Source: a virus | Lineage: Duplodnaviria > Heunggongvirae > Uroviricota > Caudoviricetes | Strand: one strand, 5' to 3' | DNA: 64,000 nt | Virus record (IMG/VR): IMGVR_UViG_2861079508_000001 | Shown here: piece by piece, positions 3,596 to 44,536 of the stretch | Layout of the letters: each line of letters opens with the position of its first letter | Position numbering within the stretch: position 1 is the first letter of the stretch | Made by a program: the position numbers and the translations under genes | Notes under the pieces: generated by a model | Told to the model about the DNA's origin: nothing | Seen by the model: only the letters and a program-made list of their open reading frames with translations | The model's database searches: none

Positions 3596-4768
3596 TGCTG
3601 CTATGCCTTTTACCTTGCTTAAAAGTTCAAGCTGTCGTGAGTAAGGTTTTGCGCAATAGTAGGCTTTGATAATCTGCCCCGGGGTCGCATCGCCGGGGTC
3701 GAGTCCTTCCTCGCCCAAACATGCAATTTTCACATTAAGACCGATACTGGTCAGTCGCCTGGCTGCGGCCATAGTGTTTCGTATAGCTTGCTTTTCACTA
3801 TCCCACATCATGATCACATTACGTAATCCACGCGCCTTGAGCGTCAGGAACGCGCCCAACTGATCTTCTGCATCCTGAGTGGTGTTACCAGATAGATGCA
3901 TCCCGAACGTTCCTATTGGTTCCACGTAATCGCGTAATGTTTCTTCGTCAAAAATAGCTCGTTTGACCCCCATAACATCGAACGCCCCCTCACAGACAAC
4001 TACAGTCTGTTTGCCGACTGCATTGTGGCCGTTGTAGAGAAACTTACCTGAAGCTGGAAGCTGCATAGGAAAGAGGTAGCGGCGTTCTGCTGTACCGGTA
4101 ATGTCTCGTCCTTGAAATGTCTTCATTACCCCATCCAGATCGTAAACCGGTATCAGTATTCGCATATCGAAAATCTGTCCTTTAACCTGATCTGTATACG
4201 GATCTACATAAGCGTGCTTGCCTTCGACGCAGTATCGTAGGTCAAAATACTTTGCCATTTCAGGCGATATATTTCGTTCAACCAGATAGTCTGGAAGATG
4301 GCCATCTATAGGAAGATCGTAATGACGAGGGAGTGCAACTGGTCCCTCTAACTCGACTGTGCTTGCAAGCACTATCTCTTCTTTCTTTGGTGCCCACCCC
4401 TGGGAAAGAAGAGCGTTCTGCACATATTCCTCGAACTGTCGTCGTGATTTACCGCTGTAGTGCTTGAGGAAGACCAGCTTATTGAACTGAATCTCTTCGG
4501 GATGATCACCAGCGAAGCATTTACCGACGCCACTGGTCAGATTGAAATATACCTTCCAGTTGGAGCTGCCGCATACCGGACACTCCTTGATATTCACTTC
4601 ACGACCGCGAGTACTCACGCCTCCACGTCGATAAACGATACCTTCAGTATCCAACCATTGTTCAAAATCTAATTCGGTAATTAGCTCTTTCAGCTCGCTC
4701 ACGATAATTCCACTTTTAACAGGCAATATTGTGACCAACCTAAATGTTGATATAACATAAAGGCTCAT
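3587..4768 (-). CDS. DNA primase (zinc-ribbon + TOPRIM)
   Basis: CPVCGSS...C zinc-binding motif followed by TOPRIM-like VVVCEGAFD and MMWDSE acidic motifs; start uncertain (track start is GTG inside a hairpin; first ATG used here). Confidence 0.55.
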   Translation of the reverse strand: MSLYVISTFRLVTILPVKSGIIVSELKELITELDFEQWLDTEGIVYRRGGVSTRGREVNIKECPVCGSSNWKVYFNLTSGVGKCFAGDHPEEIQFNKLVFLKHYSGKSRRQFEEYVQNALLSQGWAPKKEEIVLASTVELEGPVALPRHYDLPIDGHLPDYLVERNISPEMAKYFDLRYCVEGKHAYVDPYTDQVKGQIFDMRILIPVYDLDGVMKTFQGRDITGTAERRYLFPMQLPASGKFLYNGHNAVGKQTVVVCEGAFDVMGVKRAIFDEETLRDYVEPIGTFGMHLSGNTTQDAEDQLGAFLTLKARGLRNVIMMWDSEKQAIRNTMAAARRLTSIGLNVKIACLGEEGLDPGDATPGQIIKAYYCAKPYSRQLELLSKVKGIAALV

Positions 4769-8076: not shown

Positions 8077-8436
8077 TTAACCTTTCTTCATCAACTCTCG
8101 TTTGATTTCATCGGTACGCATCGTGACATCGGCAGCGGTGATCGCCTCATTCAATTTCACGATGTCCTCGATTTCCTGCGGTGACTTCTCTGCCAGATGG
8201 AAAATGGCTGCTCGAATCACGTCAGAACGAGTGAACTTCTCGAAGCGAGGGATGAACTTCATCATCTCCAGCAGTTCGAAGTATTCGTCCTCCAGTGACA
8301 TTGTGCGGCTTTTAATTTTCTCTTTGCCACGAGTCGGGCGTCCCTGTGGTCTGACTGGTTGGCGCAAAGGAGTTGTGTTCTTAGCCGGTGCATCAGGCTC
8401 TTTGCGCTTTGCTAGGTCACCCATTTTCATGGACAT
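8077..8436 (-). CDS. small partition partner protein (ParG/RHH-like), putative
   Basis: 119-aa protein with basic N-terminal tail and a C-terminal segment (FTRSDVIRAAIFHL) compatible with ribbon-helix-helix; directly downstream of ParA with start/stop overlap at 8436. Confidence 0.4.
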   Translation of the reverse strand: MSMKMGDLAKRKEPDAPAKNTTPLRQPVRPQGRPTRGKEKIKSRTMSLEDEYFELLEMMKFIPRFEKFTRSDVIRAAIFHLAEKSPQEIEDIVKLNEAITAADVTMRTDEIKRELMKKG

Positions 8437-9104
8437 TATTCTTCTTCCTCCAGACTCAACAGATAATCTACAAATTCTTCAAACTCGGCTTCCGCCTTTT
8501 TGTCGCGCTCGCTACCGGTCATTTCAAAGATAGAACGACCAGACTCTTCCGCATCATCATAGACGTTGCGGTTATATAGATTGACTGGCGCAGACTCGAT
8601 GCCAAACGTCTCAACAATCTCTTTAGCCGCCAGAATGCGAGACACTTGTGATGGCAAAGCCGGGCACTGGTTCATGACCGCGCGGACCTTCACTTTATCG
8701 TTTACATTACGAACATTGTCGATAATAGGATCGATGTCACGCAGAGATTTCAAATCACGACGCTTAGGACGAAGCGGGATAATGATAACGTCGGCCATCA
8801 GCATCGCTTGTCGCTGAATTTCGGAGTCAAAGCCACCAGCATCTACCACTACATACTCAGCTCTACCCTGAAGCGATTTTAGGTGCTTAATGATGTCATC
8901 CTGAACGTATGCAAAAGGAATCAGCTCAAGGTCTTCGTTCTGTCGACGGTCTTCACACCAGCTCGTTGTCGTGCGCTGAATATCTATATCGGTGATATAA
9001 ACCTTCTTCTTCTTTTTGACTTTCAGGCAAACGGCAATTTGCTGGGCAACGGTGGATTTGCCAGGCCCGCCCTTTGTGCCGCCAACCACAAAGATCTTGG
9101 TCAT
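8436..9104 (-). CDS. ParA/MinD-family partition ATPase
   Basis: Deviant Walker A GGTKGGPGKST at N-terminus; 222 aa. Confidence 0.7.
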   Translation of the reverse strand: MTKIFVVGGTKGGPGKSTVAQQIAVCLKVKKKKKVYITDIDIQRTTTSWCEDRRQNEDLELIPFAYVQDDIIKHLKSLQGRAEYVVVDAGGFDSEIQRQAMLMADVIIIPLRPKRRDLKSLRDIDPIIDNVRNVNDKVKVRAVMNQCPALPSQVSRILAAKEIVETFGIESAPVNLYNRNVYDDAEESGRSIFEMTGSERDKKAEAEFEEFVDYLLSLEEEE

Positions 9105-9280: not shown

Positions 9281-10033
9281 TTAATCTTTTAGGTATAAAC
9301 CTACTGGAGTTCTTGTTTTGCGGGAGATGATAAGTACGATAAATTTCTGAACGTTAACTTGCACTTTGTTTGGGAGCCAAGAGCTTAACTCTGCATCAAG
9401 CAACAATCCTCTGTTCCACGGCAAAAATCCGGTTTCTTTCCCCATCCCGTACTCGCCTAACACATCCTCGAACGTTTCTGTTTTGGCATTGTATATACGC
9501 ACATCGCCGGTTCGCATGAGAGGCCCTGCCCAGATCTTAGCACCAGGAATGGTTTGTGTATCGTCGCAGACTAAATGCTCATACCAATGAAGAAGAAAGA
9601 GATAGGTACGGTGACACAATCCTCGCTGACGACGCTCTCTGACAGTTTCGACACCGGCTACCTGGTAACATTCGATCTCATTACCGTCTTCAACAAAACT
9701 ATATTCACGCAGAGCTATCCTACCAGCGATCGTATTTTTGTTTTCGTCCAGAAGCCCGGACTGGAGCACCTCTTTGATAATCTCTTCTTCAGGGGCATCT
9801 TCATCCGCTCGATCTAAGATGAATTCGCTCAGGTCGCCTTGGTCGCGCGCACCTACAAGTTCCATAGAGACATACAGGCAAATGTCATCTTCTGGTTCAA
9901 TGATTTCAATTTCTGAGATTTTATAGAGGGAGGCTTCATTGATAAGAAAGCCAAAACGAACAACACGAGTCTCCCCTTTATGAGGAAACTCGCTTAGATC
10001 TTTTGAATATGCGCTATCTAGTGTAGGAGCCAT
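9281..10033 (-). CDS. hypothetical protein
   Basis: 250-aa ORF followed on the minus strand by a hairpin plus T-run. Confidence 0.45.
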   Translation of the reverse strand: MAPTLDSAYSKDLSEFPHKGETRVVRFGFLINEASLYKISEIEIIEPEDDICLYVSMELVGARDQGDLSEFILDRADEDAPEEEIIKEVLQSGLLDENKNTIAGRIALREYSFVEDGNEIECYQVAGVETVRERRQRGLCHRTYLFLLHWYEHLVCDDTQTIPGAKIWAGPLMRTGDVRIYNAKTETFEDVLGEYGMGKETGFLPWNRGLLLDAELSSWLPNKVQVNVQKFIVLIISRKTRTPVGLYLKD

Positions 10034-10401
10034 TTTGTAGCAGAATCATCAGCCTTAACCGTGCTGACAATGCTACCATGATTGCGTAAGAAGCGGCGAA
10101 TAGAATGTTCAATAACCTCCGAAAAAGCCTCGATAAAACGAGACAGCTCAGGGTACTGTTTAGCTGGCTTGACTACAAAACGAACACGACCATTCAGGTA
10201 AATTGCTTCAGCTAATGGCTTCACGCTTGCACCAGCGCGCTCAACATCGTCTTTGAAGGTAACGATGAAGCGTGAGTCTTCCGGTTCAATAGCGTCATTA
10301 TTGAGCTTACGTACTTCAAGCTTGTGCTGATTCAGCACATGAGTCTCGATAATACTCGTGCAATCGCGAATAGTTTGTATAGAACGTTTCTCGTTCAGCA
10401 T
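10018..10401 (-). CDS. hypothetical protein
   Basis: 127-aa ORF overlapping downstream gene start; no motifs recognised. Confidence 0.45.
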   Translation of the reverse strand: MLNEKRSIQTIRDCTSIIETHVLNQHKLEVRKLNNDAIEPEDSRFIVTFKDDVERAGASVKPLAEAIYLNGRVRFVVKPAKQYPELSRFIEAFSEVIEHSIRRFLRNHGSIVSTVKADDSATKWLLH

Positions 10402-10625
10402 GTGTCCACCTTAGCCGTTAACACAAGTGTCATTGCGGCACCCCTCTCGGGGTTGAAGGCTACGAGGATGCGTAGCCTGTATGTGCCCACTTACGTGGAT
10501 GCCTAATAAATCTACATCAAATTACTAAATGATTCAACATGAGCTTGAGTGAACAGGCGTGTATATGAGTGAAGATGCCATCTTTAGGATAAAAGGTAAA
10601 CTGAGACCACTCATCAATCATCGAC

Positions 10626-10862
10626 TCAGTTCAGGTGCCCCCACTCACACAGCCTTTCACCTATCGTATTGTGGATAAGCAACTGTCGCTCCGTTTCCTC
10701 AGTCATAAAATCCTCTCTACTCACATAAATAGGATTTGCAGCATCGCAGAATAGCACGCCTGGAGCCTGCGTCTTAATCACGCACCCATTTATCAAACAG
10801 CTCGCGATGAACACCAGAGGCATCTTTTTGCCGCACTTCATTAACCGTTTCATTTTTGACAT
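10626..10862 (-). CDS. candidate o-spanin (small outer-membrane lipoprotein), overlapped with i-spanin gene
   Basis: Internal start gives lipoprotein signal MSKMKRLMKCGKKMPLVFIAS|C (lipobox IASC); begins inside the upstream i-spanin ORF in another frame, as in Rz/Rz1-type pairs; start choice ambiguous. Confidence 0.3.
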   Translation of the reverse strand: MSKMKRLMKCGKKMPLVFIASCLINGCVIKTQAPGVLFCDAANPIYVSREDFMTEETERQLLIHNTIGERLCEWGHLN

Positions 10863-11025
10863 CCACTGTGCTTTGAAGTCGTTTTCTGTCTTCCTGTTTT
10901 GCCTTCTCTTCCATTGCTCGTCGCGCCGCATTTCCGCCCATCGTGTAAGCGCCGACAAGAACGAAAAGAACGGCAGCCAGCGTAATCAAAGCAACTTTTA
11001 GCTTTGTCATCAGGCTGCCTAGCAT
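10774..11025 (-). CDS. candidate i-spanin (N-terminal TM + periplasmic coiled coil)
   Basis: 83 aa with hydrophobic segment LKVALITLAAVLFVLVGAYT followed by charged helical region; located in lysis cluster. Confidence 0.45.
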   Translation of the reverse strand: MLGSLMTKLKVALITLAAVLFVLVGAYTMGGNAARRAMEEKAKQEDRKRLQSTVDVKNETVNEVRQKDASGVHRELFDKWVRD

Positions 11026-11026
11026 A

Positions 11027-11719
11027 TTAGACCATCCCTTTCTGGTGTTTTCTTACCTGCGACCAGGCAATGAATCCTGCCACAACAATAGTGGCAATAC
11101 CGAAGATGATGCGTACTGTATCCCCGCTAGAGATATGACCTTGTGCTTTATCCATAGCAGCGGAAACCTGCGGCATAACATCGGCAAGCTGCGCCAGACC
11201 AATACCTGCTGTGACAGTTGCGCCTGCGGTTTCTTTAGTTACAGGAACAGCCTTCACGGTTTTCACCGGCTTAACGACGCCGGCTCGACGCAGACCTTCC
11301 TCAATAACTTCTGCCGCATACCAGGTGTTCAGCGTTTTTAGTGGACCTCGACCATTCTCGTGGCGAATGATTGCCTCAACCAAAGGTCGAAGGATGTCGT
11401 AATCATGCAGATCGATGATCATGTCTGCGGTTACACCAACGGCTTTAGACACCTCATTAATGTAGGCGTCAGTGTTGTTTTCATTCGGCGGTGCCCAACG
11501 TTCAATAACTTCACGAATGGTATCGATACTTGAGCCGTCTTTTGCGCGACGTTTGTCGTGGTAGGTAATTAGAGTCACCGCCAGCGCACGAATCCCCCAA
11601 ACAGGGTCTTTAAACGTGCAAAAGCGCGGTTCGTCTGGATTCGCAACCAGACCTTGCCACGGTGATCCTTTATCAAGATTACCGGGGTTATTATTACGAA
11701 TGCCTCTCGGAGTCTTCAT
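11027..11719 (-). CDS. lysis-cluster protein with C-terminal membrane anchor (possible cell-wall hydrolase; family uncertain)
   Basis: Start set at second ATG preceded by AGGAGA; contains GIRNNNPGNL motif and C-terminal hydrophobic helix IIFGIATIVVAGFIAW; sits between holin-like and spanin-like genes. Confidence 0.4.
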   Translation of the reverse strand: MKTPRGIRNNNPGNLDKGSPWQGLVANPDEPRFCTFKDPVWGIRALAVTLITYHDKRRAKDGSSIDTIREVIERWAPPNENNTDAYINEVSKAVGVTADMIIDLHDYDILRPLVEAIIRHENGRGPLKTLNTWYAAEVIEEGLRRAGVVKPVKTVKAVPVTKETAGATVTAGIGLAQLADVMPQVSAAMDKAQGHISSGDTVRIIFGIATIVVAGFIAWSQVRKHQKGMV

Positions 11720-11732
11720 CCTTGATCTCCTG

Positions 11733-12068
11733 TTATTGCAGTCCATTTTTTACGCCATACGCGGCTAACCCCAAAAGCAGTGCAGTAATAATGAACGACG
11801 TTATTTTAGAAACAATGCCGCCAAAGAACCCACTGGAGATGGAATCTAACCGGTTAAGGAGTTTGTCCAGATTGGAGTGTTGAATACTATGTTGCGCCGG
11901 GGTCATATCACCAAAGTAGGTTTTCAGCTGATCATTGACCTCCTGGCCAATTTCTTCACGTAGCTCTTTACCTAATTTGCCAACAACCTCCCGAGCAACG
12001 ATCGCGGCAATACGCTCAACTTGCTCTGTTGTAACGCTCGCCATCTCGTTCGACATGTTTTCCTCCAT
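11733..12068 (-). CDS. holin-like small membrane protein
   Basis: 111 aa, C-terminal TM segment ITSFIITALLLGLAAYGV; first gene of lysis cluster. Confidence 0.4.
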   Translation of the reverse strand: MEENMSNEMASVTTEQVERIAAIVAREVVGKLGKELREEIGQEVNDQLKTYFGDMTPAQHSIQHSNLDKLLNRLDSISSGFFGGIVSKITSFIITALLLGLAAYGVKNGLQ

Positions 12069-12117
12069 GAAAAGTCAAATCGGGATGGCGGATTTATATC
12101 ACATTTCACCCTTTTAT

Positions 12118-12143
12118 TGTAGGTGTGTACCTACCTATCATTC
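12118..12143 (-). promoter_or_regulatory. motif 2 element
   Basis: GTGTACCTACCTATCATTC upstream of holin-like gene. Confidence 0.45.
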
Positions 12144-12371
12144 AGCATTGCAACGGACTGATGAGAAAGCACCTACTCCTACCCATCGCCAGTTATAGAT
12201 ACTACCCGCTTTGTATAAGGTATAGTCGTTCACTTTTTTAACAGCATATATGGGTATGACTGTCTCCTGTCCACCAATGATAGCCTCACCGTAACATATA
12301 GGTGTCGGCAATTTCTGGCAGCCAGTAAGAGAGAGAACAACAGCTATTATTAGAAATAATCTTTTCATCAT
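12138..12371 (-). CDS. small lipoprotein (candidate superinfection-exclusion/receptor-blocking lipoprotein)
   Basis: 77 aa with signal peptide and lipobox LTGC; located immediately downstream of tail-fibre-associated genes, the position occupied by Llp/Cor-type lipoproteins in other siphoviruses. Confidence 0.45.
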   Translation of the reverse strand: MMKRLFLIIAVVLSLTGCQKLPTPICYGEAIIGGQETVIPIYAVKKVNDYTLYKAGSIYNWRWVGVGAFSSVRCNAE

Positions 12372-12378
12372 TTACTCA

Positions 12379-12987
12379 TCAGTTATACAGATTTCTATTT
12401 ATTACCGGTACTCTGCCATTTACGCTAAAACTATGGCCGCCATTAAGTTGGTTTACGAATATCGAGCTAACAGTATTTCCATATGCCGCATATCCATAAA
12501 CCATTGTCATGGCTCCGCCCGGTACTGGAACAGCGAACACATTCGCATATGTTGGGATTATCGCTGGTGGGTAATCAAAAACATGCCCTCCAGAGCTGTT
12601 CCACTCCGTATTATTAAGAAAGGTAAATGAAAGTGGGATATTTGCCGTATTATAGATTTCCTCCCCTTGTGCATTGAAAAAACTCATGCCCCAAGTTTCT
12701 TTTTTGGCTATACCTTTCGAAAATACGTATATCGTGGCACTAGAGTCGCTACCCTGACCTCCGAAACTGTAAATCACCTGGTTGTTACGCACTATTCTGT
12801 TGGCTATTAATGAAACAGCTTTCGAATAGGCAACAAAAATCATCGGTGAACGATCTGGAGATATTTGGGTGTTAAACTCTGTCCCGCCGGACAAAGAAAC
12901 AACCTGCTTTCTCTGAAAAACGATAGGAGACAAAGAAGGAGACATCCAGACCTTCCCGTCAGATCGATATATCTTGCTTCCGTACAT
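12379..12987 (-). CDS. hypothetical tail-fibre-associated protein
   Basis: 202 aa; start overlaps stop of upstream gene (TAATG), suggesting co-translation with 12987..13241. Confidence 0.45.
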   Translation of the reverse strand: MYGSKIYRSDGKVWMSPSLSPIVFQRKQVVSLSGGTEFNTQISPDRSPMIFVAYSKAVSLIANRIVRNNQVIYSFGGQGSDSSATIYVFSKGIAKKETWGMSFFNAQGEEIYNTANIPLSFTFLNNTEWNSSGGHVFDYPPAIIPTYANVFAVPVPGGAMTMVYGYAAYGNTVSSIFVNQLNGGHSFSVNGRVPVINRNLYN

Positions 12988-13241
12988 TATTTTTGAAAAA
13001 CCAATATGTTTAAATTACCACTAGCTCCAGACCACGAAATGGTATTTCCAGAAACCGTAAGACTTGTGTATTTTCCATTGGTTACGTCCATTATGTAATA
13101 GTCGATTCCCAATCCCGCCTCAACCTCATATGTTCTACTTCCTGAACCAGAGGGAGTAAAATAATCGAGGTAATAAACAGGGGCCAACGCATCGACCATC
13201 TCCTGTCTTGATGGCGACCAAACCTGTGCACCATAGCTCAT
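12987..13241 (-). CDS. hypothetical tail-fibre-associated protein
   Basis: 84 aa; immediately downstream of long tail fibre gene. Confidence 0.4.
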   Translation of the reverse strand: MSYGAQVWSPSRQEMVDALAPVYYLDYFTPSGSGSRTYEVEAGLGIDYYIMDVTNGKYTSLTVSGNTISWSGASGNLNILVFQK

Positions 13242-13301
13242 AAATATATCCTTATACTTTTAAGCAGGGGCTGGTTTAGTTCCAGCCCCGATTGAAGTTG
13301 T

Positions 13302-16300
13302 TTATTCTTTAGGTGAATTTAACTTCGTTTCAAGCTCCTCAACCCTTTTGGTCAATTGCTGAATATGATGAATGAGTGGTACAACCAAACGCTCATACAT
13401 CACTCCTTCAGCGACCATACCATTTGAGGAAATATCTTCTGGAGAATCATTATTTGTTGGTTCACGCCAATGGACATATTGCGGGGCAATCTCACCAACC
13501 TCTTCAGCAATAAGGCCGTAATACCCCCAATCCTTTCGGTCACCTCGACAAATTGAACGATACCAAACAGGTCTTAATGACAAAAGTTCATCAGCATATC
13601 GATCTTGTAATGTTTCAATATCCTTTTTATAGCGCCTTGAAGAGGTTGAACGCCAAACTGTATTGATACCTGGGTTTGGATCAATGTACATATTGGCACC
13701 GCTAGTAGTTGTGCCAATATCCCATATAGCAAACCCTCCACTACCGCCTGATTTGACAACCAGTGTTTCAGCAATAATATCCAGGTTGCCACTATAGCCT
13801 GTCAGTGATGATCTGCTTGCATAGGAACTTAGAAGGTTTGTTACCTCTGTTTTCGTGTAAGCATTAAGGTTAGCCGCAGTCAAAGTTATATCGGCAGAGC
13901 CATCAAACGCCACACCAGCAATTTTCCTTGCTGTCTGCAATTTTGTGGCGGTTGCGGCATTACCAGTAGTGTTCTGATTACCAGTTGTATTCACACCAGG
14001 GATTGAATCCTTAGCGGTATATACCTGCGCCCACGCTGACCATGCCGCACCTGTGTTATCTCTTCGTGAGCGAATGAAAACTGGCGCATGTGCACCGCTC
14101 GTACCACTCCAGCCAATAAGCAACTCTCCCTCACCAGCAGCACTCGCACCTTTCATGTGCAATACGTTGCCATACATGGTCGGGTAGCTATTGTTGTACG
14201 CCTCGTACATTTGAATGCCAGCAGTGCCTTGAGTAGAGCCGCTTAACGCCGTAACTCGGCCACGAGATACCAATGTATTAATGTTGATATCGCCTGAGCC
14301 ATCAAACTTAACACCATTGATGTTTCTCGCTGTTTGCAACTTCGTAGCTGTTGAAGCATTACCGTTCAAACTACCATTTACGCCACCAGTCACATTTAGT
14401 CCATTACCAATTGATACAGCACCGCTGGTATTATTAATTGTAATAGGTCGCAAACCGTTCCATGAACCTAATGTGTCTCCTGATGCTGTTAGCATGAAAT
14501 ATGTGTTCGATCCATCATTACGGATAAAGAACCCAAAGCTACCGTAAGCAATGCGGAAACCATTTGCATATTTTGAAATGATCTCGCCAGAAGATGTCAA
14601 ACCTCCAGATAATGTACCACCGGTAAGAGGTAATGCACCGACATCAGAGGCTGTTGGTTTGTTTTTCGTGTTATATACTCTTCGCCATCCCGGAGAATAA
14701 TCTGTGCCATTAAATACATAGATAAACTCCGCATTAGTGAGAGCACCAGAGACACTCGTCGTTGTGGCCGTTGTTATACGGATCGTATAATTGTTTGAGC
14801 TACTACCGTTATTAAATACCTCTATAACAGCTCCTGCCAATGGAATAACGCCACAACCAGTTTCACTATTTGGTATGGTTGCACTATTGGCATAGGCCCA
14901 CGCACATCGAGCAATCCATGACTTTGTGTTAAATGCTCCATTATTTTGCAATAACGTCACTAACTGTGCTGTTGTTATTGCTCCGCCATTACTTCCTGTA
15001 GTTAACCAACCAGTAGGAGATGCCGGGCAACCTATATTTGCTGGCGACAAGGAAATATTTGCCGAGCCGTCAAACGACACCCCATTGATAGTACGCGCAG
15101 TCTGCAACTTCGTAGCAGTAGCCGCGTTGCCCGTTGTATTCTGATTACCAGTCGTATTAACACCTGGCAAATTAATATTCGCAGTACCATCAAAGCTCAC
15201 GCCGCCGATAGTTCTTGCCGTCTGAAGTTTTGTAGCAGTTGCAGCATTACCAGTGGTGTTCTGATTACCCGTAGTATTTACACCTGGAAGGTTGATATTT
15301 GCAGAACCGTCGAAACCAACTCCACCGATAGATCTTGCCGTCTGCAATTTCGTTGCTGTACTTGCATTACCATTTAATGTTCCGGTGATCCCACCAGTAA
15401 CAGACAACGGACCTGAAACTGTTCCTCCGGTTGTTGGCAGTGCTCCAATATCTAACGGCGTCGGTTTCTGATGTGTGCTATACATCGTATAAACAACACC
15501 ATCGGTAACGCTGGAAGGCTTACTAGCTGAATATGTTGGCGATGTATAAATAGAAACTGTCGCATTTGCAGTACAATCCCAATGGATATTTACACGAGTC
15601 GCATAATTGCCAATCTCAACGTAAATATCATATGTATCGCCGGATGTGTTGATCCAGGCGAAATTCGTTAATCCGACAGCTGTACGCTTCCACAAAGCAC
15701 CTGTAATCCCTTTGGGGTTTCCATTGCCTGCTCGTAGAACCAGTTCTGAAATGCCTGCCTGATGTGGGGAGCCGACGTTGTAACCAGCGCCACCAATCAA
15801 TGCGATGTAAACGATGGAACTCGCTTGTGGCATGGTAACCGTAGCCAGTTTGAACCACCCTGCCCCGCCAGAGAAAGACATCGTTACTGAATTTAAAGTA
15901 CCAATATCTTTCGGCGTTAATGTGATATCCGCAGTCAGTGCTTTACCGTTAACTTTTCGGTTAGATGGCACCCTGCTATTCGCATTGTCATTGGCTGCTT
16001 TAACTGCTTTTGGCGTTGCGGCCAGCGATTCACTGGTGCTGTCGACAGCACTGCTAAGTTTCACAACACCTTTAGTTGTAAGGCTTGCGTCTTCCATCGC
16101 AACTGCACCGGCAATCTCTTCAGCACGATCAGCAGCAGCTTCCGCACGGGTCGCAGCGGATTCAGCAGCAGTTTTGCTCTGAGATGCTGCCGTCGCACTG
16201 CCTGCCGCCTCTGTTGCTTTCGTGGATGCCGTCGTGGCGCTGCCCTTCGCTGCTGACGCCTGTCTGGTCGCCTCATCTTTTGAAGCAGACGCAGATGATG

Positions 16301-17459
16301 CCGATGACGCTGCCGAACTGGCGGACGATGCGGCTGCCGTTTTTGAGGATTCTGCACGGGTTTCCGACGCTTTCGCGTTCGTTTCGGATGTCTTCGCTGC
16401 GGAAGCAGACCTCGCTGCTGCGCTGGCCTGTTCAGTGGCTTCGCCAGCCTTCGTTGTGGCTGTTGAAGCAGACGATGCGGCACTTTCTGCCGATTTTCCG
16501 GCGGCTGTGGCACTGGCTGAGGCCTGCCCGGCACTTGTTGACGCGGCACTGGCAGACGACGCAGCCGCTGTTTTTGAGCCTGCTGCAGCCGAGGCGCTCT
16601 GTCCCGCTGCCGTTTCAGAAGACTTGGCGTTCGTCTCGGACGTTTTTGCCGCCTTCGCGGAATTTCCTGCCGCCGTTGCCGAGGAAGCTGCGCTACTGGC
16701 GCTCGAGGATGCGTTCGTTTCTGATGATTTCGCTGCCTCTTTTGAGGCCGCCGCATCCCGGGCTGAGGTGGCAGCTTCTGACGCTTTCGTGGTCGCGGTG
16801 GATGCAGAAGTGGCTGCTGATTGTTGTGACGCTGCGGCATTCGTTTCAGATTTTTTCGCAGCAGTTGCACTCGCACTTGCGGCACTTTGTGAGGATGCCG
16901 CAGCGGATGCACTTTGAGACGCTTGAGAGGCTTTTTCTCCAGCGGTATTGGCGCTTTCTGCTGCTGCGGCAGCACTGGCCGCCGCCTCACGAGCTTTGTC
17001 GCCAGCAGCATCAATCGCGTCAGTGTTATTTTTATACCACTCAACGTTTTCGTTGTGCTCGTTGACGATCTGCATTAGCGGCTTAACGGTTACTTCTGAA
17101 CCGTCTTCACGCTCGATTGTCACCTCATCCAGAGCAGTCAACCAACTGCGCATGGACTTGGAATCAGCCGACATACGCGACATTAGTGCTGTAAAGCGCG
17201 CGCTAAACTGTGTTAAGTCGCCTTCATAGGTCGTAATGATTCGGCACGGAACTTCAGACTGAGTTTCGCCGGTATAAGGTTCTGAGAGAACAATGTTCGT
17301 ATCACTGGTTACGCGCTTGATCTCATACAGCTTATTGTCGGGGCCAATGACGATCATCCCCGGCAACACACCATTAGCTGTTACGTTCCAGGCTGTCCCT
17401 GCCCCAACCAGAGTATTGCTGCCCTGTGTAAATGTGATAGTACCTTCCCTGTACCACAT
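13302..17459 (-). CDS. long tail fibre protein with C-terminal intramolecular chaperone (peptidase S74-type) domain
   Basis: 1385 aa; ~280-aa Ala/Ser/Thr-rich low-complexity region; tandem phage-fibre repeats (ASTATKLQTAR.IGGV.FDGSANINLPGVNTTGNQNTT x3-4); C-terminal YGLIAEEVGEIAPQYV-type chaperone motif. Confidence 0.75.
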   Translation of the reverse strand: MWYREGTITFTQGSNTLVGAGTAWNVTANGVLPGMIVIGPDNKLYEIKRVTSDTNIVLSEPYTGETQSEVPCRIITTYEGDLTQFSARFTALMSRMSADSKSMRSWLTALDEVTIEREDGSEVTVKPLMQIVNEHNENVEWYKNNTDAIDAAGDKAREAAASAAAAAESANTAGEKASQASQSASAAASSQSAASASATAAKKSETNAAASQQSAATSASTATTKASEAATSARDAAASKEAAKSSETNASSSASSAASSATAAGNSAKAAKTSETNAKSSETAAGQSASAAAGSKTAAASSASAASTSAGQASASATAAGKSAESAASSASTATTKAGEATEQASAAARSASAAKTSETNAKASETRAESSKTAAASSASSAASSASSASASKDEATRQASAAKGSATTASTKATEAAGSATAASQSKTAAESAATRAEAAADRAEEIAGAVAMEDASLTTKGVVKLSSAVDSTSESLAATPKAVKAANDNANSRVPSNRKVNGKALTADITLTPKDIGTLNSVTMSFSGGAGWFKLATVTMPQASSIVYIALIGGAGYNVGSPHQAGISELVLRAGNGNPKGITGALWKRTAVGLTNFAWINTSGDTYDIYVEIGNYATRVNIHWDCTANATVSIYTSPTYSASKPSSVTDGVVYTMYSTHQKPTPLDIGALPTTGGTVSGPLSVTGGITGTLNGNASTATKLQTARSIGGVGFDGSANINLPGVNTTGNQNTTGNAATATKLQTARTIGGVSFDGTANINLPGVNTTGNQNTTGNAATATKLQTARTINGVSFDGSANISLSPANIGCPASPTGWLTTGSNGGAITTAQLVTLLQNNGAFNTKSWIARCAWAYANSATIPNSETGCGVIPLAGAVIEVFNNGSSSNNYTIRITTATTTSVSGALTNAEFIYVFNGTDYSPGWRRVYNTKNKPTASDVGALPLTGGTLSGGLTSSGEIISKYANGFRIAYGSFGFFIRNDGSNTYFMLTASGDTLGSWNGLRPITINNTSGAVSIGNGLNVTGGVNGSLNGNASTATKLQTARNINGVKFDGSGDININTLVSRGRVTALSGSTQGTAGIQMYEAYNNSYPTMYGNVLHMKGASAAGEGELLIGWSGTSGAHAPVFIRSRRDNTGAAWSAWAQVYTAKDSIPGVNTTGNQNTTGNAATATKLQTARKIAGVAFDGSADITLTAANLNAYTKTEVTNLLSSYASRSSLTGYSGNLDIIAETLVVKSGGSGGFAIWDIGTTTSGANMYIDPNPGINTVWRSTSSRRYKKDIETLQDRYADELLSLRPVWYRSICRGDRKDWGYYGLIAEEVGEIAPQYVHWREPTNNDSPEDISSNGMVAEGVMYERLVVPLIHHIQQLTKRVEELETKLNSPKE
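15050..15420 (-). repeat. tandem ~110-bp coding repeats inside tail fibre gene
   Basis: Encode the repeated ATKLQTAR.IGGV.FDG fibre motif. Confidence 0.6.
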
Positions 17460-24808: not shown

Positions 24809-27800
24809 TTAGTTACGTTGAGTGTTTGGGTTGAGAGATCCGCCAGGGCGTTTCTCTTGAGCGATAGTCTCAAGCGCGATTGCTTTCATCCGTTGAGCGG
24901 CATTGTTCCATATGCTTTCTGTATCGCCGGATTCAGTTGTGCTACCGTCACTATGGACGTTGATCTCAATTGATACCGGAGAAAGAACATTTCCTCCTCC
25001 ACTCATACCATCGGTACTGAGCGTTACAGGGATTGTTCGACCATCAGGCAATGGAACATACGCCTCATTCATATCGCCTTCCCCAAACAACGCCAATTGA
25101 GGTGAGTTGGCGATACCGCCTTTCTGGTATGCCCGGAGCGGGATCACGCCGTCTTTTCCGAATATGCCACCATTTGCAAACTTCGGAATTGCAGGAATAC
25201 CATTCGTGCCATCGGCAGCAGAACTGGTCAGATTGTTGAACCCGGAAGTTGAGCCAGAAGAACCGGACATCAATCCATCGAATCCACCACCAGCCCATAC
25301 TGAAACCAAACCAGATGCAACTGTCGCGCCGAAATTCAACCACTTATTACCAGAGCCGGAAGCATTAGCTCCAAGCATTGCAAACGCGGCAGACAGAGCG
25401 CCGGTAACAGAGCTGAGGTTCTGCATCGAGAAGATGGAGTCCTTCACTGCTTTTGTCTCAGCATCTTTGGCTTCGGTGCTATCAAATAGCCCCGATACCC
25501 AGCTACCAATCGCATTTGTTGCTGTGCCAATTGCGCTGGTGGTCTGCTGTGTTGTTTGCCCCAATCCAGTTACCGAACTGGACGTCTCCTTCGTGGCTTC
25601 TCCTACCGACTTGTCGCCATTAACAGTGTTGCCCATTCGTACACCTTGATTGGCAACGGCAGAAGCAACTCCAGTGAGCAAATTGCCACTCTGTGAACTA
25701 CCAGCTGCGGTGGTTCCCATCCCCAACATGTTCATTAGAGGCAGCGTGATTTGCGACTTCACGACCATATTGGTGATATCTTTCAAAATGGACTGAGATA
25801 GGCTGGAGAAGCTCATCTTCCCGTTAATAACGAAATCAGTCAGGACATCAGTTAAGCCACTAAACAAATCAGTCCAGGTGCTTTCGATCTGCTCTGCCAA
25901 GTTTTCGTATTCCAGTGCCAACTTCTGCGTCGCAGTCCCCGTCTCTTTAATAAGCGCGGTATTGCCAGCAGCAATCAGTTGATTGATTTTCTTTGTATAA
26001 AGCGCCACAACTTTAGGATCAGACGCCTTATCACGAAGTTCTATCAACGCTTTGAGATTGCGGTTGTAGGTGTCTTCGAAATCGGCAACTTTCTCTTCGC
26101 GAGACGGCGTATAGCCAGCACTAATAATGGAATCCGCCTCCGGTGCCCAAGTGGAGATCATCTGCTCAACATTGCGGCGATTAAACATCTCACGATATTC
26201 AGGTGTCGCATTTTTGAGGTCTTCAAGACGTTTTTTCGCCTTGTCGATCATCTCTTGAGTGATGAACTCGTTAGGAACCGCATTAGCCAAATCTGTCAGC
26301 GATTTCGTTGTATCGCGAAGAGACTGATCAAACGATACCGTAGCCTTAGAGCTTTCACCCATTTGCCCCATAAGCTGATCGGCTTTGTCCAGAGCCTTCT
26401 GGTATCCGGCTGCCAGTTTCTGTTGCGCTGCCTGTTCCTTCTTGGCCGCACGCTGCGAGGCGTTAGCTGATCGTTGGGCTGCTTTCTCGGCAGCTGCTGC
26501 ATCCTGTTCACGAGCTTTAGTTAGTGCAGCAATGGCTGCGGCACGCTCTTCATCGCTCATTTTCTCCAGAGAGCTGGCGCTGGATGCTTTCTGCAAATTA
26601 AGCTGCGTCTTGAGTTGTTTAGGCCCAATAATCGGCTTACCTTCGAAGTCCATCATCGGAGTGCCGTCAGGCAAAGTACGCTGATAAGTCGCAGAATTCA
26701 TCTGGTTTCGCATATATTGCGCCAACGCCTTCTGAGCAGCTTTATCAGTTGTACCTAACCCAAGAACAGTCCCCTGGTTTGACATTACGCCCTTACCAGT
26801 TTTGGCCGCGTTATCTCTCTCGAACTCTGCCTGAGTAAGTTCCTGAGCAACGGCTTCCAAATGCTCCTGATAACCACGAATACTGCCTTGCAGTTTCTGG
26901 ATTTGCTCGGTATTGCCATCCTTTTTGGCTTTTTCAAGCTGATCATTAAGAGTCGCGATTTGCTTCTCGGTCGCATTCTTACGAGAAGAAAGTGAATCAA
27001 CCAGTTTTTGCGCAGGCTCCAGATAGCTTTTGTTTACCGTTTCACGTAACGGTGCCAATAGCTTGTTCTTTTCGTCATCTGAAAGTGAACCGTCATCATT
27101 GATTTTCTGGATCTTATCCAGAGCCTCCTGCCGGGCTTTCACGAATGTTGCCGCGAAAATCTGGTTTTCCGCTCGAATTTTCTCAATCTGAGATTCGGCA
27201 GCCTCTTTAGCCAAACGCTTTGCTACAGCGCCGTCACCAAGAGCTATCGTGCCGGTTATCTTTTGATACTCTTCCTGATTTTTTTTCAGGCGTGCTTCGA
27301 TGTCAGCCTTCGACTCTTTGTGAGTAATAACACCGGCAGAGTTAGATACGTAATTAACACCCTCACCAGTTTTTAATGCTCGTTGATCAGCAAGAATCTG
27401 CTTTTCGAGCTTTTCTGCGCGGTCGGCCATTTGTGCACGTTTGGCCGCCGTCATCGCCTCTGGTATTTTCCTAATCTCGTCAACGACCTTTGAAGTTTCG
27501 CTGCGGAGCATGGTCATGTACGTGATTAGGCCAGCAACAGCTACAGTGGCAACTGTAAATGCTGCCCCTATAGGGTTTGCTGCAATGAACGCCGTTAATC
27601 CAGCAAAAGCGCCTTTAAGCCCCGTAATCGCCCCACGGATGGCGAAAATAAGAGAGGGGATCGGAGCCAGCCCCATACGTGCCGCACGATTGAATCGGGT
27701 TACTGCTGTAGCGCCGAGGTTAAATGGAGTCTGTATGGCGGTCGCCATCGTGGCAAAGGTGCTAACCATCTGGCTGCCTGCGCCAACTACCCCCATGATC

Positions 27801-28547
27801 CCTGCTCGCATCAGTTTGAACGCAACCATCGCGGCCACGACCTTACCGAGATTAATTACCAGCTCTTGGTTCTTTGCTAACCATTGAGCAAGCTGACGCA
27901 ACCCATCAATTGCCGTCGTTAACCCCGAGCCTAAAGAATTGGCAAACGAAATCCCTTCGGCGCTATTCATGATTGAAGCCAGTTCTTTCATCCCCTTCGA
28001 TAGAGAATCCAGATATCCGGCCTGACCAACCCGATCAGCAAATAACGTGAATGACGTCTGAAGTTGCGCCAGCGCACCTGTGTAGGTTTGCATCATGTCT
28101 TTCGCTGCGTTCTCATTCTCCGCACGCAGACCAACAAACATCAGAGACAACGCCTGTTTTGCCTCAACCGTACCGCTGGCAACGGCTTTAGTCAGTTCCC
28201 CCATAGTGATGCCTGCGGCGTCTGCCATTGCCTGCATCGCGTTAGGAACGGCTTCACCTAATTGCTGACGTAGCTCTTCCATTGACACAACGCCCTTACC
28301 GGACATCTGCTGAACGGCCACAGCCGCACGTTTCAACAGCTCACTATCACCACCAAAACGAGCAACGGAGTCCACCAGCGCCTTCAGAGAACCATCGGTT
28401 GGATCTAAGCCAGCAGAACGAAACTTCACGAAGGAATCTGTTAACGCCTGCATCGCGAACGGCGCATTTTGCGCCATGTCTACGATGTACTTCATATCAT
28501 CAGCGGCAGCCTGGCCAGGGTTGGACTTCTCCTTATTCAACCCTCGA
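24809..28547 (-). pseudogene. tape measure protein, 3' portion (gene interrupted by IS insertion)
   Basis: Long mostly helical ORF (1243 aa from an internal TTG) downstream of chaperone genes; reading frame is continuous with the 29858..30714 fragment once the IS and one TSD copy are removed. Confidence 0.7.
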
Positions 28548-28601
28548 TGAACCGCCCCGGGAATCCTGGAGACTAAACTCCCTGAGAAAGAGGTAAACAG
28601 G

Positions 28602-28928
28602 ATGACTAAAAATACTCGTTTTTCCCCCGAAGTCCGTCAGAGGGCGATTCGTATGGTTCTGGAAAGTCAGGGCGAATATGACTCACAGTGGGCGGCAATT
28701 TGTTCCATTGCCCCAAAGATTGGCTGTACACCGGAGACTCTGCGTGTCTGGGTACGCCAGCATGAGCGGGATACCGGAGGCGGTGATGGCGGGCTCACCA
28801 CCGCTGAACGTCAGCGTCTGAAAGAGCTGGAACGTGAAAATCGTGAACTGCGCCGCAGTAACGATATCCTTCGCCAGGCTTCCGCTTATTTTGCGAAGGC
28901 GGAGTTCGACCGCCTCTGGAAAAAATGA
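28602..28928 (+). CDS. IS3-family transposase OrfA (HTH/leucine-zipper part)
   Basis: 108 aa [23 protein letters not shown]...; I recognise this as the IS629/IS3-group OrfA; ends at an A-run slippery site. Confidence 0.8.
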
Positions 28929-29815
28929 TGCCACTGCTGGATAAGCTGCGTGAGCAGTACGGGGTCGGACCGCTATGCAGCGAACTGCATATTGCCCCGT
29001 CAACGTATTACCACTGTCAGCAACAGCGACATCATCCGGATAAACGCAGTGCCCGTGCGCAGCGCGATGACTGGCTGAAGAAAGAGATACAGCGCGTATA
29101 CGATGAAAATCATCAGGTGTACGGTGTGCGTAAAGTCTGGCGTCAGTTGTTACGGGAAGGTATCAGAGTGGCCAGATGCACTGTGGCACGTCTCATGGCG
29201 GTTATGGGACTTGCCGGTGTTCTCCGGGGTAAAAAGGTCCGTACGACCATCAGCCGGAAAGCCGTTGCCGCAGGCGACCGCGTAAACCGTCAGTTCGTGG
29301 CAGAACGACCTGACCAGCTGTGGGTGGCTGATTTTACTTACGTCAGCACATGGCGGGGCTTCGTCTATGTGGCGTTCATCATTGATGTGTTTGCCGGATA
29401 CATCGTGGGGTGGCGGGTCTCATCGTCTATGGAAACGACATTCGTGCTGGATGCTCTGGAGCAGGCGTTATGGGCCCGTCAACCGTCCGGCACAGTCCAT
29501 CACAGTGATAAAGGTTCTCAGTATGTATCGCTGGCCTACACACAGCGGCTTAAGGAAGCCGGATTACTGGCATCAACAGGAAGTACTGGTGACTCGTATG
29601 ACAACGCGATGGCGGAGAGCATCAATGGCCTTTACAAAGCGGAGGTAATACACCGTAAGAGCTGGAAAAACCGGACAGAAGTGGAGCTGGCCACACTCAC
29701 GTGGGTGGACTGGTATAACAATCGACGATTGCTGGAAAGGCTGGGCCATATCCCACCGGCAGAAGCAGAAAAAGCTTATTATGCTTCCATCGGAAACGAT
29801 GATCTGGCAGCCTGA
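28925..29815 (+). CDS. IS3-family transposase OrfB (DDE catalytic part)
   Basis: 296 aa overlapping orfA in the -1 frame at AAAAAATGA; integrase-type DDE core (e.g. [16 protein letters not shown]). Confidence 0.8.
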
Positions 29816-29857
29816 GTTCACAGATAAAACACTCTCCAGGAAACCCGGGGCGGTTCA

Positions 29858-30714
29858 CGAAGCATCACCCGCATACGTTCCATTTCGGCCGCAGCTTCAA
29901 CAATAGGCTTCTGCCACCCAAACATGATGTCAGTAACCGTTCTGGCTGCATCTCCGATCTCGCCAAGCAGGAAAATGTTGCCACGAAGGCCAGAGAACAT
30001 ACCTCCTTCGTTACTTTTACCGCTATGGCCAGAAGCGCCGCTACGCCGCCCGCTACCACCATCGCCACTTCCAGATGTACGAACGCGTACCGGCTTGCTA
30101 ATCAGTTGCTGACGTCCGATAACTTCGTCCATCTGCTCACGAACCTTTTTCAGTCCCTCGGCAGCCTGACTCGTTGTGACACCCCAATTACTGAGTCGCT
30201 TCGTCGTGGTATTAAGGCGCGTATTCATGCCACTCACGGACGCAGAGGCTTCTTTGACCTCCGTACCAAAGCGGCTTGCGCTTTTGCTTGCATAGGTCGC
30301 CCAATCAGAGAAATCATTTAGCTCTGATTGCACTTTACGTAATGACGCGGTGAGTTTATCTACTGAAGAAGTTGTCGTATCGACGCGCTCAATCAGGGCT
30401 TTAAGACCAGAATTGAGGCTGGTGATGTTGCCACGCATTTTACGCGTAGCATCTGAAGCAAGCTCAAAACCGGCAGCTACATCCTGTAGTTTATCTGCTG
30501 TAGAATCGAGCTTGCTTTCCAGAACGCCAATGATACGGGCGACCGAACCCAAAGAGCGTTCAAAGGTTTGGATTTTTTGAGCAGGCTTTGTTACCTGCTC
30601 ACCAAATCGAGTAAGCAGTTTCCCCGCACGATCGATTGACGCTGTAAACTGTTTGTCTTCCAGCGACAGGATAAACTCTACGTTTTGTGACATTCCCTTG
30701 TCATCCTCTGCCAA
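29858..30714 (-). pseudogene. tape measure protein, 5' portion (truncated by IS; last 13 codons of ORF are IS-derived)
   Basis: ORF 29818..30714 reads from TMP start into the IS right end; codon 285 ends in the CGA target duplication. Confidence 0.7.
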
Positions 30715-44493: not shown

Positions 44494-44507
44494 TTTATTG
44501 CTACAAT

Positions 44508-44536
44508 ACACTAAGTAACCACTTACTTATTATAAT
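44508..44536. promoter_or_regulatory. motif 2 element in divergent intergenic region
   Basis: ACACTAAGTAACCACTTACTTATTATAAT between ParB-like gene start and helicase gene. Confidence 0.45.

Follow-up and report, generated by a model that had tools for sequence, protein, structure and literature searches.

A probable lysis cassette with an Enc34/M4Lys-type, membrane-anchored endolysin in an SSU5-like phage-plasmid of Escherichia coli

In the window (the whole 64,000-nucleotide stretch of DNA that was analysed), four tightly packed genes on the minus strand encode a small membrane protein (the holin candidate), an endolysin, an i-spanin and an o-spanin (Table 1). Their order and limits agree with an earlier, sequence-only reading of the same DNA, which had placed a lysis cassette after the tail genes. 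The cassette is there, but not in direct adjacency to the tail genes: three small genes, encoding an 84-aa ORF, a phrog_425 protein and a Cor lipoprotein, intervene before the tail fibre gene. Homologues at E-values of 1e-25 or below exist for all four cassette ORFs, which excludes chance ORFs. The cassette DNA is 100% identical in the E. coli plasmid CP057685.1 and is matched by 397 plasmid records. It shows 94.6% identity to Escherichia phage Cyrano and 83% to Salmonella phage SSU5, in both of which the genes are annotated Holin/Endolysin/Rz/Rz1. We can only infer the transcription unit, because a scan of 10300-13400 detected neither a sigma-70-like promoter nor a terminator in the immediate surroundings of the cassette; promoter-like sites in this interval are fewer than in shuffled sequence, with none just upstream of the cassette.

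Table 1. Positions of the lysis genes and their parts in the window
Feature	Coordinates	Strand	Details
Lysis cassette	12068..10626	-	Four genes
Holin candidate	11733..12056	-	107 aa; start M5 at 12056, GGAGGA ribosome-binding site and PHROG profile
Endolysin ORF	11746..11027	-	239 aa; AGGAG-supported start at 11719 gives 230 aa
Endolysin catalytic domain, PHA02564 / Enc34 type	11270..11719	-	aa 1-150; PDB 7Q47 and phrog_873 matches
Endolysin Glu121 codon	11359..11357	-	
Endolysin linker and C-terminal membrane module	11027..11269	-	aa 151-230 and stop codon; hydropathy
Endolysin strong transmembrane segment	11054..11119	-	aa ~201-222
i-spanin	11025..10774	-	83 aa; phrog_1026 Rz-like spanin, E=5.7e-25
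o-spanin	10626..10853	-	~75 aa from ATG 10853; phrog_1275 Rz-like spanin, E=2.7e-25

The second gene carries the best-defined function. The AGGAG-supported start bears out the length of 230 aa given previously; the protein begins MKTPRGIRNNNPGNL and has the GIRNNNPGNL motif at aa 6-15. By eye, it had been judged not assignable to a known lysozyme, amidase or peptidase family. That judgement does not hold, since the protein matches the Enc34 endolysin's catalytic domain (7Q47_A; E=1.5e-54, aa 10-160 of the 239-aa ORF) as well as phrog_873, "endolysin" (6.4e-89). The crystal structure of this enzyme, ORF39 of Hafnia phage Enc34, and its catalytic residues Glu131/Trp79/Tyr95 have been reported (Cernooka et al. 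2022, PMC8943055). In the alignment with 7Q47, the stretches RHENG, ERWAPP and AY are identical, and the catalytic signature is conserved as W75, Y86 and E121 (W79, Y95 and E131 in Enc34). The similarity to the crystal structure suggests an all-helical fold resembling the lysozyme alpha-lobe, and by homology the enzyme is a GH73/GH23-like glycosidase, probably an N-acetylglucosaminidase. The single-sequence AlphaFold2 model is all-helical (mean pLDDT 36.4, too poor for a fold search). An experimentally characterised relative is M4Lys of Salmonella phage BSPM4, which is named as homologous in the Enc34 paper (PMC8943055). M4Lys degrades purified peptidoglycan, releases GlcNAc and lyses E. coli alone (Bai et al. 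2020, PMC7143992). An endopeptidase-like product was also reported for M4Lys, and hence the bond specificity is not fully settled.

The endolysin ends in a membrane module, as the sequence-only reading had proposed. A strong hydrophobic segment (Kyte-Doolittle maximum 2.07; Table 1) is directly followed by the basic tail RKHQKGMV, and a second, weakly hydrophobic helix at aa ~165-185 consists of Gly/Ala/Ser/Thr to 54%. Identity to Chi gp38 is 56% over residues 4-228, the transmembrane tail and basic C-terminus included, and in alignments the C-terminal tail is kept even in relatives at 40% identity. The N-terminus (MKTPRGIRNNNPGN...) is hydrophilic and the hydrophobic segments are exclusively C-terminal; hydropathy reveals no N-terminal weakly hydrophobic signal-anchor-release (SAR) domain. 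SAR-like, Sec-dependent export is therefore not expected, and lysis by M4Lys is azide-insensitive. M4Lys lysis is lost on truncation of the transmembrane domain. Its membrane module is indispensable for lysis from within and, on overexpression, suffices for holin- and Sec-independent lysis (PMC7143992). Both peptidoglycan degradation and transmembrane-domain-dependent lysis from within have been described for M4Lys and Enc34 ORF39 (PMC7143992, PMC8943055). The suggestion of an atypical membrane-tethered cell-wall hydrolase thus stands, given the strong homology, the conserved catalytic residues and the C-terminal anchor.

The same catalytic domain is also found in tail tape measure, T7-like internal virion and "virion/structural" proteins (phrog_7182, phrog_2276 and phrog_992; PDB 9vvp, Gp29), and the 230-aa protein might accordingly be a virion-associated peptidoglycan hydrolase that serves DNA injection and not an endolysin. 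We regard this as very improbable. The protein is small, stand-alone and membrane-anchored, its gene lies between those of the holin candidate and the spanins, and the 182 phage records with full-length homologues represent endolysins of Chi-like phages. Moreover, M4Lys causes lysis from within (PMC7143992). A scan for lysozyme, amidase, peptidase and transglycosylase classes covered the tape measure, tail tip and tail fibre proteins and 30 other window ORFs, whereas the structural genes of the 30.7-41.1 kb region and the majority of ORFs <100 aa lay outside its individual scans; neither the ORFs covered nor the SSU5 annotation (bases 1-100,000 of 103,299) yielded a second endolysin. The middle protein likewise has no homology to a non-lytic function, and the endolysin assignment is the reading followed below.

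The two genes that follow encode a spanin pair. The start codon of the i-spanin lies 1 nt past the endolysin stop. This protein has an N-terminal transmembrane segment (aa ~8-28) followed by a charged helical periplasmic part with zero cysteines, and is 82% identical to SSU5_028 and 26% identical to Chi gp39 (E=1e-4). A lipoprotein gene starting inside the i-spanin gene in another frame had been noticed before, and this is confirmed. The o-spanin lies within an ORF (10958..10626) with realistic ATGs at 10862, 10853 and 10841, is read in the +1 frame relative to the i-spanin, overlaps it by ~68-89 nt (10774..10853 from ATG 10853) and extends 148 nt beyond its stop, i.e., the architecture is "overlapped". 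As to the lipobox, its presence holds, but IASC does not contain the conserved cysteine. The region reads MKRLMKCGKKMPLVFIAS-C-LING-C-V, with two candidate cysteines and no Asp at +2. When SSU5, Cyrano, Chi and a metagenomic relative are aligned with it, the cysteine that is conserved belongs to L-I-N-G-C, five residues after that of IASC, where relatives have VSGC (SSU5), ISGC (Cyrano) or LSGC; the homology-supported lipobox thus has an unusual Asn at -2. Lipidation at either cysteine, IAS-C or ING-C, is possible. Two cysteines of the mature o-spanin are shared with Chi, SSU5 and the relative L006, and the protein is 47% identical to Chi gp40 (E=1e-17). SSU5 has been grouped with Chi and Enc34 in one spanin family (PMC6139136).

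The first gene, which ends 13 nt upstream of the endolysin start, is more difficult to interpret. Its ORF is open from an upstream ATG (12068..11733, 111 aa). A dual-start motif, MSNEM, was considered and rejected, the second Met being lost in relatives that are 65-70% identical. The holin-like topology with a C-terminal transmembrane segment is as previously read: there is a single hydrophobic segment (aa ~77-102) after which only KNGLQ (5 residues) remains, and the N-terminal domain of ~80 aa is acidic, predicted to be helical and carries the family motif YFGDMTPAQHSIQH. A small size, at least one transmembrane segment and a place beside the endolysin gene, which are among the features expected of a holin, are all present in the 107-aa protein. 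Pfam, NCBIfam, PDB profile and PHROG searches gave no similarity to a named holin family, and the best profile matches, IpaB_EvcA (E~0.06-0.18) and IpgB2 (E=0.046), were treated as noise. Chi gp37 gave no BLAST match. The charged C-terminal tail typical of holins is absent; in the family, the residues beyond the best 19-residue hydrophobic window, counted as the tail, number ~10 on average, of which 1.2 are Lys/Arg. A structure prediction from an 11-sequence alignment reached pLDDT 46.5, too poor for a fold search.

The protein belongs to phrog_5093, which carries the PHROG label "unknown function" and to which 62 remote representatives and every one of the 40 aligned members are assigned. Among phages, homologues are confined to SSU5-like phages, and tblastn with two remote members against cultured phages returned only the same 12 SSU5-like records. 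In nine of ten sampled family contexts lysis genes adjoin the phrog_5093 member, which comes first in the lysis cassette, and members occur in this position beside four or five endolysin classes. Remote genes lie directly upstream of a Peptidase_M15_3, an Amidase_2 or a GH24-like lysozyme gene, or of a Holin_2-3 gene and then an SLT-like gene. In L006, the first gene adjoins the endolysin, with 65% (holin-like) and 67% (endolysin) identity to the proteins of the window. About half of the distant cassettes also carry a small two-transmembrane or Pfam Holin_2-3 protein. The label "holin" is taken from gene position only and may be wrong, because similarity to holin families and a charged tail are lacking and a second holin-like protein co-occurs in about half of the distant cassettes. 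The first protein may be a holin or a lysis regulator.

These features raise the possibility that the first protein is not a holin but a tail-anchored protein that serves as an antiholin or lysis regulator (or as a release factor), and that the two-helix C-terminal module of the endolysin makes the membrane lesion, as a fused endolysin-holin. We hold this to be possible but doubtful. No holin is needed for lysis by M4Lys, whose transmembrane domain is bacteriostatic by itself (PMC7143992). This is consistent with such a role for the module, but the holin-independent lysis may be an artefact of overexpression (PMC8943055). Distant phrog_5093 cassettes encode a separate 73-90-aa protein right after a soluble M15/Amidase_2 endolysin gene, the same position that the endolysin tail has in the SSU5 type. 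Two of the four such proteins pass a two-segment hydropathy threshold, a third has one clear segment, and a Pfam Holin_2-3 protein follows one phrog_5093 relative. The endolysin tails and the small two-transmembrane proteins share neither sequence similarity nor a PHROG, however: a four-tail profile scored 0.5-2.2 bits, homology was rejected at the sequence level, and the analogy is positional only. The endolysin homologue of the relative L016 keeps its C-terminal module although the catalytic Trp, Tyr and Glu are all replaced. In the phrog_5093 alignment, G49, H56 and H60 are invariant, and these residues of the soluble domain resemble an interaction or regulatory domain more than a pore-former. 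Chi-type phages, on the other hand, pair the same anchored endolysin with a different upstream protein, gp37/ORF37, for which holin-like behaviour is reported in BSPM4 (PMC11657625).

With equally tentative support, the 107-aa protein might be the founding cultured member of an unrecognised lysis-cassette family, phrog_5093, whose members have in common an acidic helical N-terminal domain, an invariant G...H...H motif and a C-terminal transmembrane anchor. It would then be no classical holin, acting instead as a tail-anchored regulator or partner that gates the endolysin membrane module, the latter being the hole-former of a natural endolysin-holin fusion. If true, a tractable model for such a regulator or partner would be available solely in the SSU5-like phage-plasmids of E. 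coli K-12.

Another question is whether the cassette functions at all in its present setting. The tape measure gene is interrupted by a 1310-bp element of the IS3 family with a 3-bp target duplication, and because of this the resident phage copy is probably unable to make infectious particles; the cassette may never be used productively in the resident host. In the extreme, it would be an inactive remnant in a defective prophage-plasmid with no present function in the host, which we find unlikely. Each of the four lysis ORFs is intact and has a good ribosome-binding site, other plasmids carry copies at 100% identity, and the proteins are 95-99% identical to those of infectious phages. The insertion looks recent, as the inverted repeats are 92% complementary, and a 1533-aa ORF reappears when the element is deleted along with one duplication copy. 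Even with the phage in decay, the identities of the encoded genes would be unchanged.

Collectively, the endolysin and spanin homologies support the lysis-cassette reading (a holin-like protein, an atypical tethered hydrolase and overlapped spanins), and we consider it highly likely that the locus serves an SSU5-like E. coli phage-plasmid as its late-expressed lysis cassette, with an Enc34/M4Lys-type endolysin and spanins. In the mechanism that we envisage, the 107-aa protein would insert into the inner membrane via its C-terminal transmembrane segment and control when lysis occurs; it would be the holin itself, or else a partner in hole formation or a regulator of it. The endolysin, tethered to the inner membrane by its C-terminal hydrophobic module, would then cut the glycan strand of peptidoglycan via Glu121 with Trp75 and Tyr86, as its close homology with enzymes already characterised indicates. 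After cleavage of the peptidoglycan meshwork, the inner-membrane i-spanin and outer-membrane o-spanin, judging from their family membership, would bridge the periplasm and disrupt the outer membrane.

As it stands, the finding changes little. By similarity, the lysis system is one already known and the middle protein is of a described endolysin type (Enc34/M4Lys), a class for which a crystal structure and biochemical data exist, and annotations of the cassette exist for SSU5 and Cyrano. The listed plasmid records label its genes "hypothetical protein" almost throughout. Endolysin, holin candidate and spanins all lack models in NCBIfam and Pfam, and routine annotation consequently misses the lysis cassette of a widespread phage-plasmid group. 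The route by which an endolysin with a C-terminal anchor gets to the cell wall is an acknowledged question; the conserved first gene (phrog_5093) is a concrete candidate player in this step and is testable in E. coli K-12.

Among known systems, Enc34-type enzymes were characterised in 2020-2022 (PMC7143992, PMC8943055), and the Enc34 cassette resembles the present one in its PHA02564-type catalytic domain with the Trp/Tyr/Glu signature, in the C-terminal membrane module and in gene order, i.e., small membrane protein, endolysin and overlapped i/o-spanin pair. The catalytic domains are well short of identical and differ by small indels. The 107-aa protein is also unrelated to the upstream holin candidate of Enc34, in which the transmembrane helix is N-terminal and a dual-start motif is present. 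Through gp38 and M4Lys, the Chi-like phages provide the homologue whose experimentally determined properties are transferable to the endolysin. They are, however, virulent flagellotropic siphoviruses of ~59 kb, whereas the window comes from a phage-plasmid of ~110 kb, and their upstream gp37/ORF37 has an N-terminal transmembrane segment and is non-homologous to the 107-aa protein.

SSU5 (SSU5_026-030) and Cyrano (CYRAN_22-25) carry the same cassette. Compared with SSU5, the holin candidate is 95% identical, the endolysin 94%, the i-spanin 82% and the o-spanin 75% at the protein level. Cyrano differs in that its annotated Rz1 start lies after the lipobox, giving a truncated protein, and in its downstream accessory genes, which include a KacT toxin-antitoxin pair.

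With SAR endolysins, for example P1 Lyz or phage 21 R, and with LysAP of Acidovorax phage AP1, whose anchor is C-terminal (PMC8879335), the endolysin shares an inner-membrane tether before lysis, a weakly hydrophobic Gly/Ala/Ser/Thr-rich helix and the possibility of lysis without a canonical large-hole holin. Unlike in SAR endolysins, the anchor is C-terminal and not N-terminal, and there is no N-terminal signal. The proteins bear no sequence relationship to lambda S or R, and the i-spanin, at 83 aa and cysteine-free, is very short relative to those of lambda and P2. The overall layout is nevertheless that of lambda S-R-Rz/Rz1, with a timing protein, a wall hydrolase and a two-component spanin, and the +1-frame o-spanin reaching beyond the i-spanin corresponds to the "overlapped" arrangement of P2 lysB/lysC (PMC6139136).

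Four open reading frames lie within 10626-12068, all on the minus strand and running from 12068 to 10626, as a sequence-only reading had proposed for a four-gene lysis cassette, here with the strand corrected to minus. The endolysin, holin candidate, and spanins have no NCBIfam or Pfam models, and the second product, which begins MKTPRGIRNNNPGNL, was therefore not placeable by eye. A PHROG profile search matches it to phrog_873 "endolysin" (6.4e-89), and it aligns with PDB 7Q47, the crystallised catalytic domain of the endolysin from Hafnia phage Enc34 (E=1.5e-54). In this alignment, Enc34 Glu131 (RHENG), Trp79 (ERWAPP), and Tyr95 (AY), catalytically important according to the Enc34 authors (PMC8943055), correspond to E121, W75, and Y86, and all three are identical. 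Moreover, identity to Chi gp38 is 56% across residues 4-228, a stretch of homology that takes in the C-terminal membrane module. One strong hydrophobic segment (aa ~201-222) is followed by RKHQKGMV, and a second, weaker helix (aa ~165-185) is 54% Gly/Ala/Ser/Thr. The homologue M4Lys, from Salmonella phage BSPM4, degrades purified peptidoglycan with release of GlcNAc and alone lyses E. coli, a Sec inhibitor being without effect, while its transmembrane domain by itself is bacteriostatic (Bai et al. 2020, PMC7143992). The predicted endolysin identity and chemistry are very likely, given the close homology with enzymes already characterised. The earlier suspicion of an atypical membrane-tethered cell-wall hydrolase was thus correct, and the type is already known.

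Positions of the features discussed (window numbering unless a locus is named)
Feature	Position	Strand	Remarks
Gene 1, holin candidate	ORF open from ATG 12068; preferred ATG 12056	-	107 aa
Gene 2, endolysin	ORF open from 11746; ATG 11719	-	230 aa; ATG after AGGAG site
Gene 3, i-spanin	11025..10774	-	83 aa; N-terminal transmembrane segment
Gene 4, o-spanin	ATG at 10862, 10853 or 10841; end 10626	-	+1 frame; begins within gene 3
o-Spanin signal peptide	10781-10853	-	candidate lipidation cysteines IASC, INGC
Cor superinfection-exclusion lipoprotein	12138-12371	-	NCBIfam NF047972, E=4e-23
"Membrane associated protein"	12379-12987	-	202 aa; phrog_425
84-aa ORF	12987-13241	-	SSU5 counterpart annotated "outer membrane protein"
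Tail fibre	13302-17459	-	1385 aa
Tape measure gene	24809-30714	-	split by IS element
IS3-family element	28548-29857	+	1310 bp
IS orfA	28602-28928	+	HTH_Tnp_1
IS orfB	28925-29815	+	rve
Two unknown-function genes	9281-10401	-	phrog_3307, phrog_2594
Partition-like locus	8436-9104	-	
Partition-like locus	41596-44511	-	
Partition-like locus	57296-58396	+	
SSU5_101	L004 (Salmonella phage SSU5) 36898-37596		
KacT toxin and antitoxin	L001 (Escherichia phage Cyrano) 3126-3960		
Cyrano "Rz1 spanin"	L001 (OV696614) 3993-4112		39 aa
Enc34-type homologue	L016:3368-4063		Logan SRR30563942 contig

By tblastn, the catalytic domain occurs in 793 phage records, 182 of which, from Chi-like and SSU5-like phages, match at full length; elsewhere only this domain is present, within tape measure proteins, "virion proteins", T7-like internal virion proteins, and further endolysins. 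Cernooka et al. 2022 (PMC8943055), who solved the structure of the Enc34 catalytic domain, describe the mechanism by which an N-terminal domain with a C-terminal anchor crosses the membrane as unknown. How C-terminally anchored endolysins reach the periplasm is a modest lead here. Structure predictions for the endolysin and the holin candidate were both of low confidence.

No second endolysin was found in the scanned window ORFs or among the genes annotated in bases 1-100,000 of SSU5. Pfam recognises nothing but structural domains in the tail tip, tail fibre, and tape measure proteins, and no lytic family was found among 30 other window ORFs. In the SSU5 RefSeq annotation (PHROG-style; bases 1-100,000 of 103,299), SSU5_027 is the only named endolysin. 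SSU5_101 is annotated as "lysozyme inhibitor LprI family".

A metagenomic contig (L016) encodes an Enc34-type homologue, 40% identical, in which the catalytic Trp, Tyr, and Glu are all replaced (RHENG to VMYNG, ERWAPP to CEYRNL, Tyr not conserved). Conservation nevertheless remains good across the linker and the C-terminal membrane module, and this single sequence therefore hints that the module may have a function of its own; either the homologue is a pseudo-enzyme or its tail acts independently.

For the first gene, the PHROG profile favours the start at 12056, as does a GGAGGA ribosome-binding site, and the sole hydrophobic segment of the product is C-terminal (aa ~77-102), followed by KNGLQ. 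By BLAST, the gene is confined to the 12 SSU5-like phage records, and at tblastn sensitivity the family is restricted to SSU5-like phage-plasmids in a set of 50,697 deposited phage genomes; all database copies are labelled "hypothetical". An exhaustive profile search with a cut-off of E<=1e-3 gave 62 representatives, usually 94-143 aa long, and 40/40 aligned relatives belong to phrog_5093 ("unknown function"). No Pfam or PDB relative was found for the aligned members, nor any similarity to Chi gp37, the Chi-like counterpart, which has an N-terminal transmembrane segment. Members share an Ala-rich N-terminal helix, a C-terminal transmembrane segment, a short tail, and the motif YFGDMxPxxHxxQHxR, with Gly49, His56, and His60 invariant. 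Lys/Arg counts of 2.1 in the N-flank vs 1.2 in the C-tail weakly favour a cytoplasmic N-domain.

Ten gene contexts were sampled, one of them (L009) a short contig that is uninformative. The family member is immediately followed by an Enc34-type anchored endolysin in the window, L006, and L016; by a soluble Peptidase_M15_3 enzyme in L010/L011, L012, L015, and L017; by an Amidase_2 enzyme in L013/L014; and, judged by eye, by a GH24-like lysozyme N-terminus in L019. In L018, the next gene encodes a Pfam Holin_2-3 protein, and after it comes an enzyme that looks SLT-like by eye and has a hydrophobic segment at its N-terminus. Phrog_5093 members thus hold the first position of lysis cassettes beside four or five endolysin classes and so form a genuine cassette component, and this conserved position makes it very probable that the first gene takes part in lysis. 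Whether it is the holin is a separate matter. In the M15 and Amidase_2 cassettes with downstream sequence, a 73-90 aa protein follows the endolysin, then an i-spanin-like protein, and 2/4 of the small proteins pass a two-segment hydropathy threshold. The phrog_5093 protein is therefore not necessarily the holin, and could instead be a regulator or partner (e.g., an antiholin), a reading we consider possible but rather unlikely. In SSU5-type cassettes, the two-helix tail of the endolysin takes the place of the separate small protein; no sequence similarity was found between them, so a "fused holin" origin is a positional analogy only. We lean slightly towards the first gene being the holin proper. 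The earlier description as holin-like agrees with the cassette position. This uncharacterised family is a further modest lead.

The cassette was also said to follow the tail genes; it does lie downstream of the tail fibre gene, but three small genes (12138-13241, minus strand) intervene. A promoter and terminator scan around the cassette gave nothing useful. The fibre contains a long low-complexity stretch rich in Ala/Ser/Thr and, in addition, repeats of NQNTTGNAATATKLQTAR; it also has a trimerisation domain like that of T4 gp34 and ends in a Peptidase_S74 intramolecular chaperone. Its length differs from that of the SSU5 fibre, which suggests possible host-range variation. Downstream of the cassette and adjoining parA is a variable accessory site: SSU5 has two hypothetical genes (SSU5_031/032) at the position of the two genes seen here, and Cyrano instead has the KacT acetyltransferase toxin with its antitoxin.

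An IS3-family element has 25-bp terminal inverted repeats beginning TGAACCGCCCCGGG and a 3-bp target duplication, CGA. Its end sequence and length resemble those of IS629/IS1203. Excising it with one CGA restores a 1533-aa tape measure ORF (intact SSU5 gene, 1526 aa); because the element splits this gene, particle production by this copy of the phage-plasmid is probably defective. The window also encodes ParA- and ParB-like partition proteins, a DnaB-like helicase, and a primase, and is an SSU5-like phage-plasmid. Two different ParA-like genes are present, and two adjacent ParB-like genes (phrog_930 and phrog_723) follow two ABC-transporter-ATPase-like genes, a partition-like set unusually rich for a single replicon.

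The overlapped spanin pair stands. Gene 3 starts 1 nt from the gene 2 stop, gene 4 ends 148 nt beyond the gene 3 stop, and the two match phrog_1026 and phrog_1275, respectively, both "Rz-like spanin" (about 1e-25); family membership and architecture make a spanin function highly likely. The proposed lipobox IASC is plausible and canonical, but lies 5 residues upstream of the homology-supported position, which reads VSGC, ISGC, or LSGC in relatives and INGC here, where the Asn at -2 is unusual. The annotated Cyrano Rz1 lacks a signal peptide because its start, an internal GTG, lies past the lipobox.

A literature search found no paper on the SSU5 lysis cassette or on a tail-anchored holin. Plasmid records matching the 2-kb cassette region number 397; identity to one of them, E. 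coli plasmid CP057685.1, is 100%, and among the matches listed almost all of the genes are called "hypothetical protein". The region is 94.6% identical to Cyrano and 83% to SSU5, where the corresponding genes are annotated as holin, endolysin, Rz, and Rz1; the cassette is hence of a known kind, with close relatives already annotated. As in P2, the spanin genes have the "overlapped" geometry. The o-spanin resembles Chi gp40 strongly (47% identity, E=1e-17) and the i-spanin Chi gp39 weakly (26%, E=1e-4), in agreement with Kongari et al. 2018 (PMC6139136), in whose listing SSU5 shares one spanin-component family with Chi and Enc34 and is a singleton in another.
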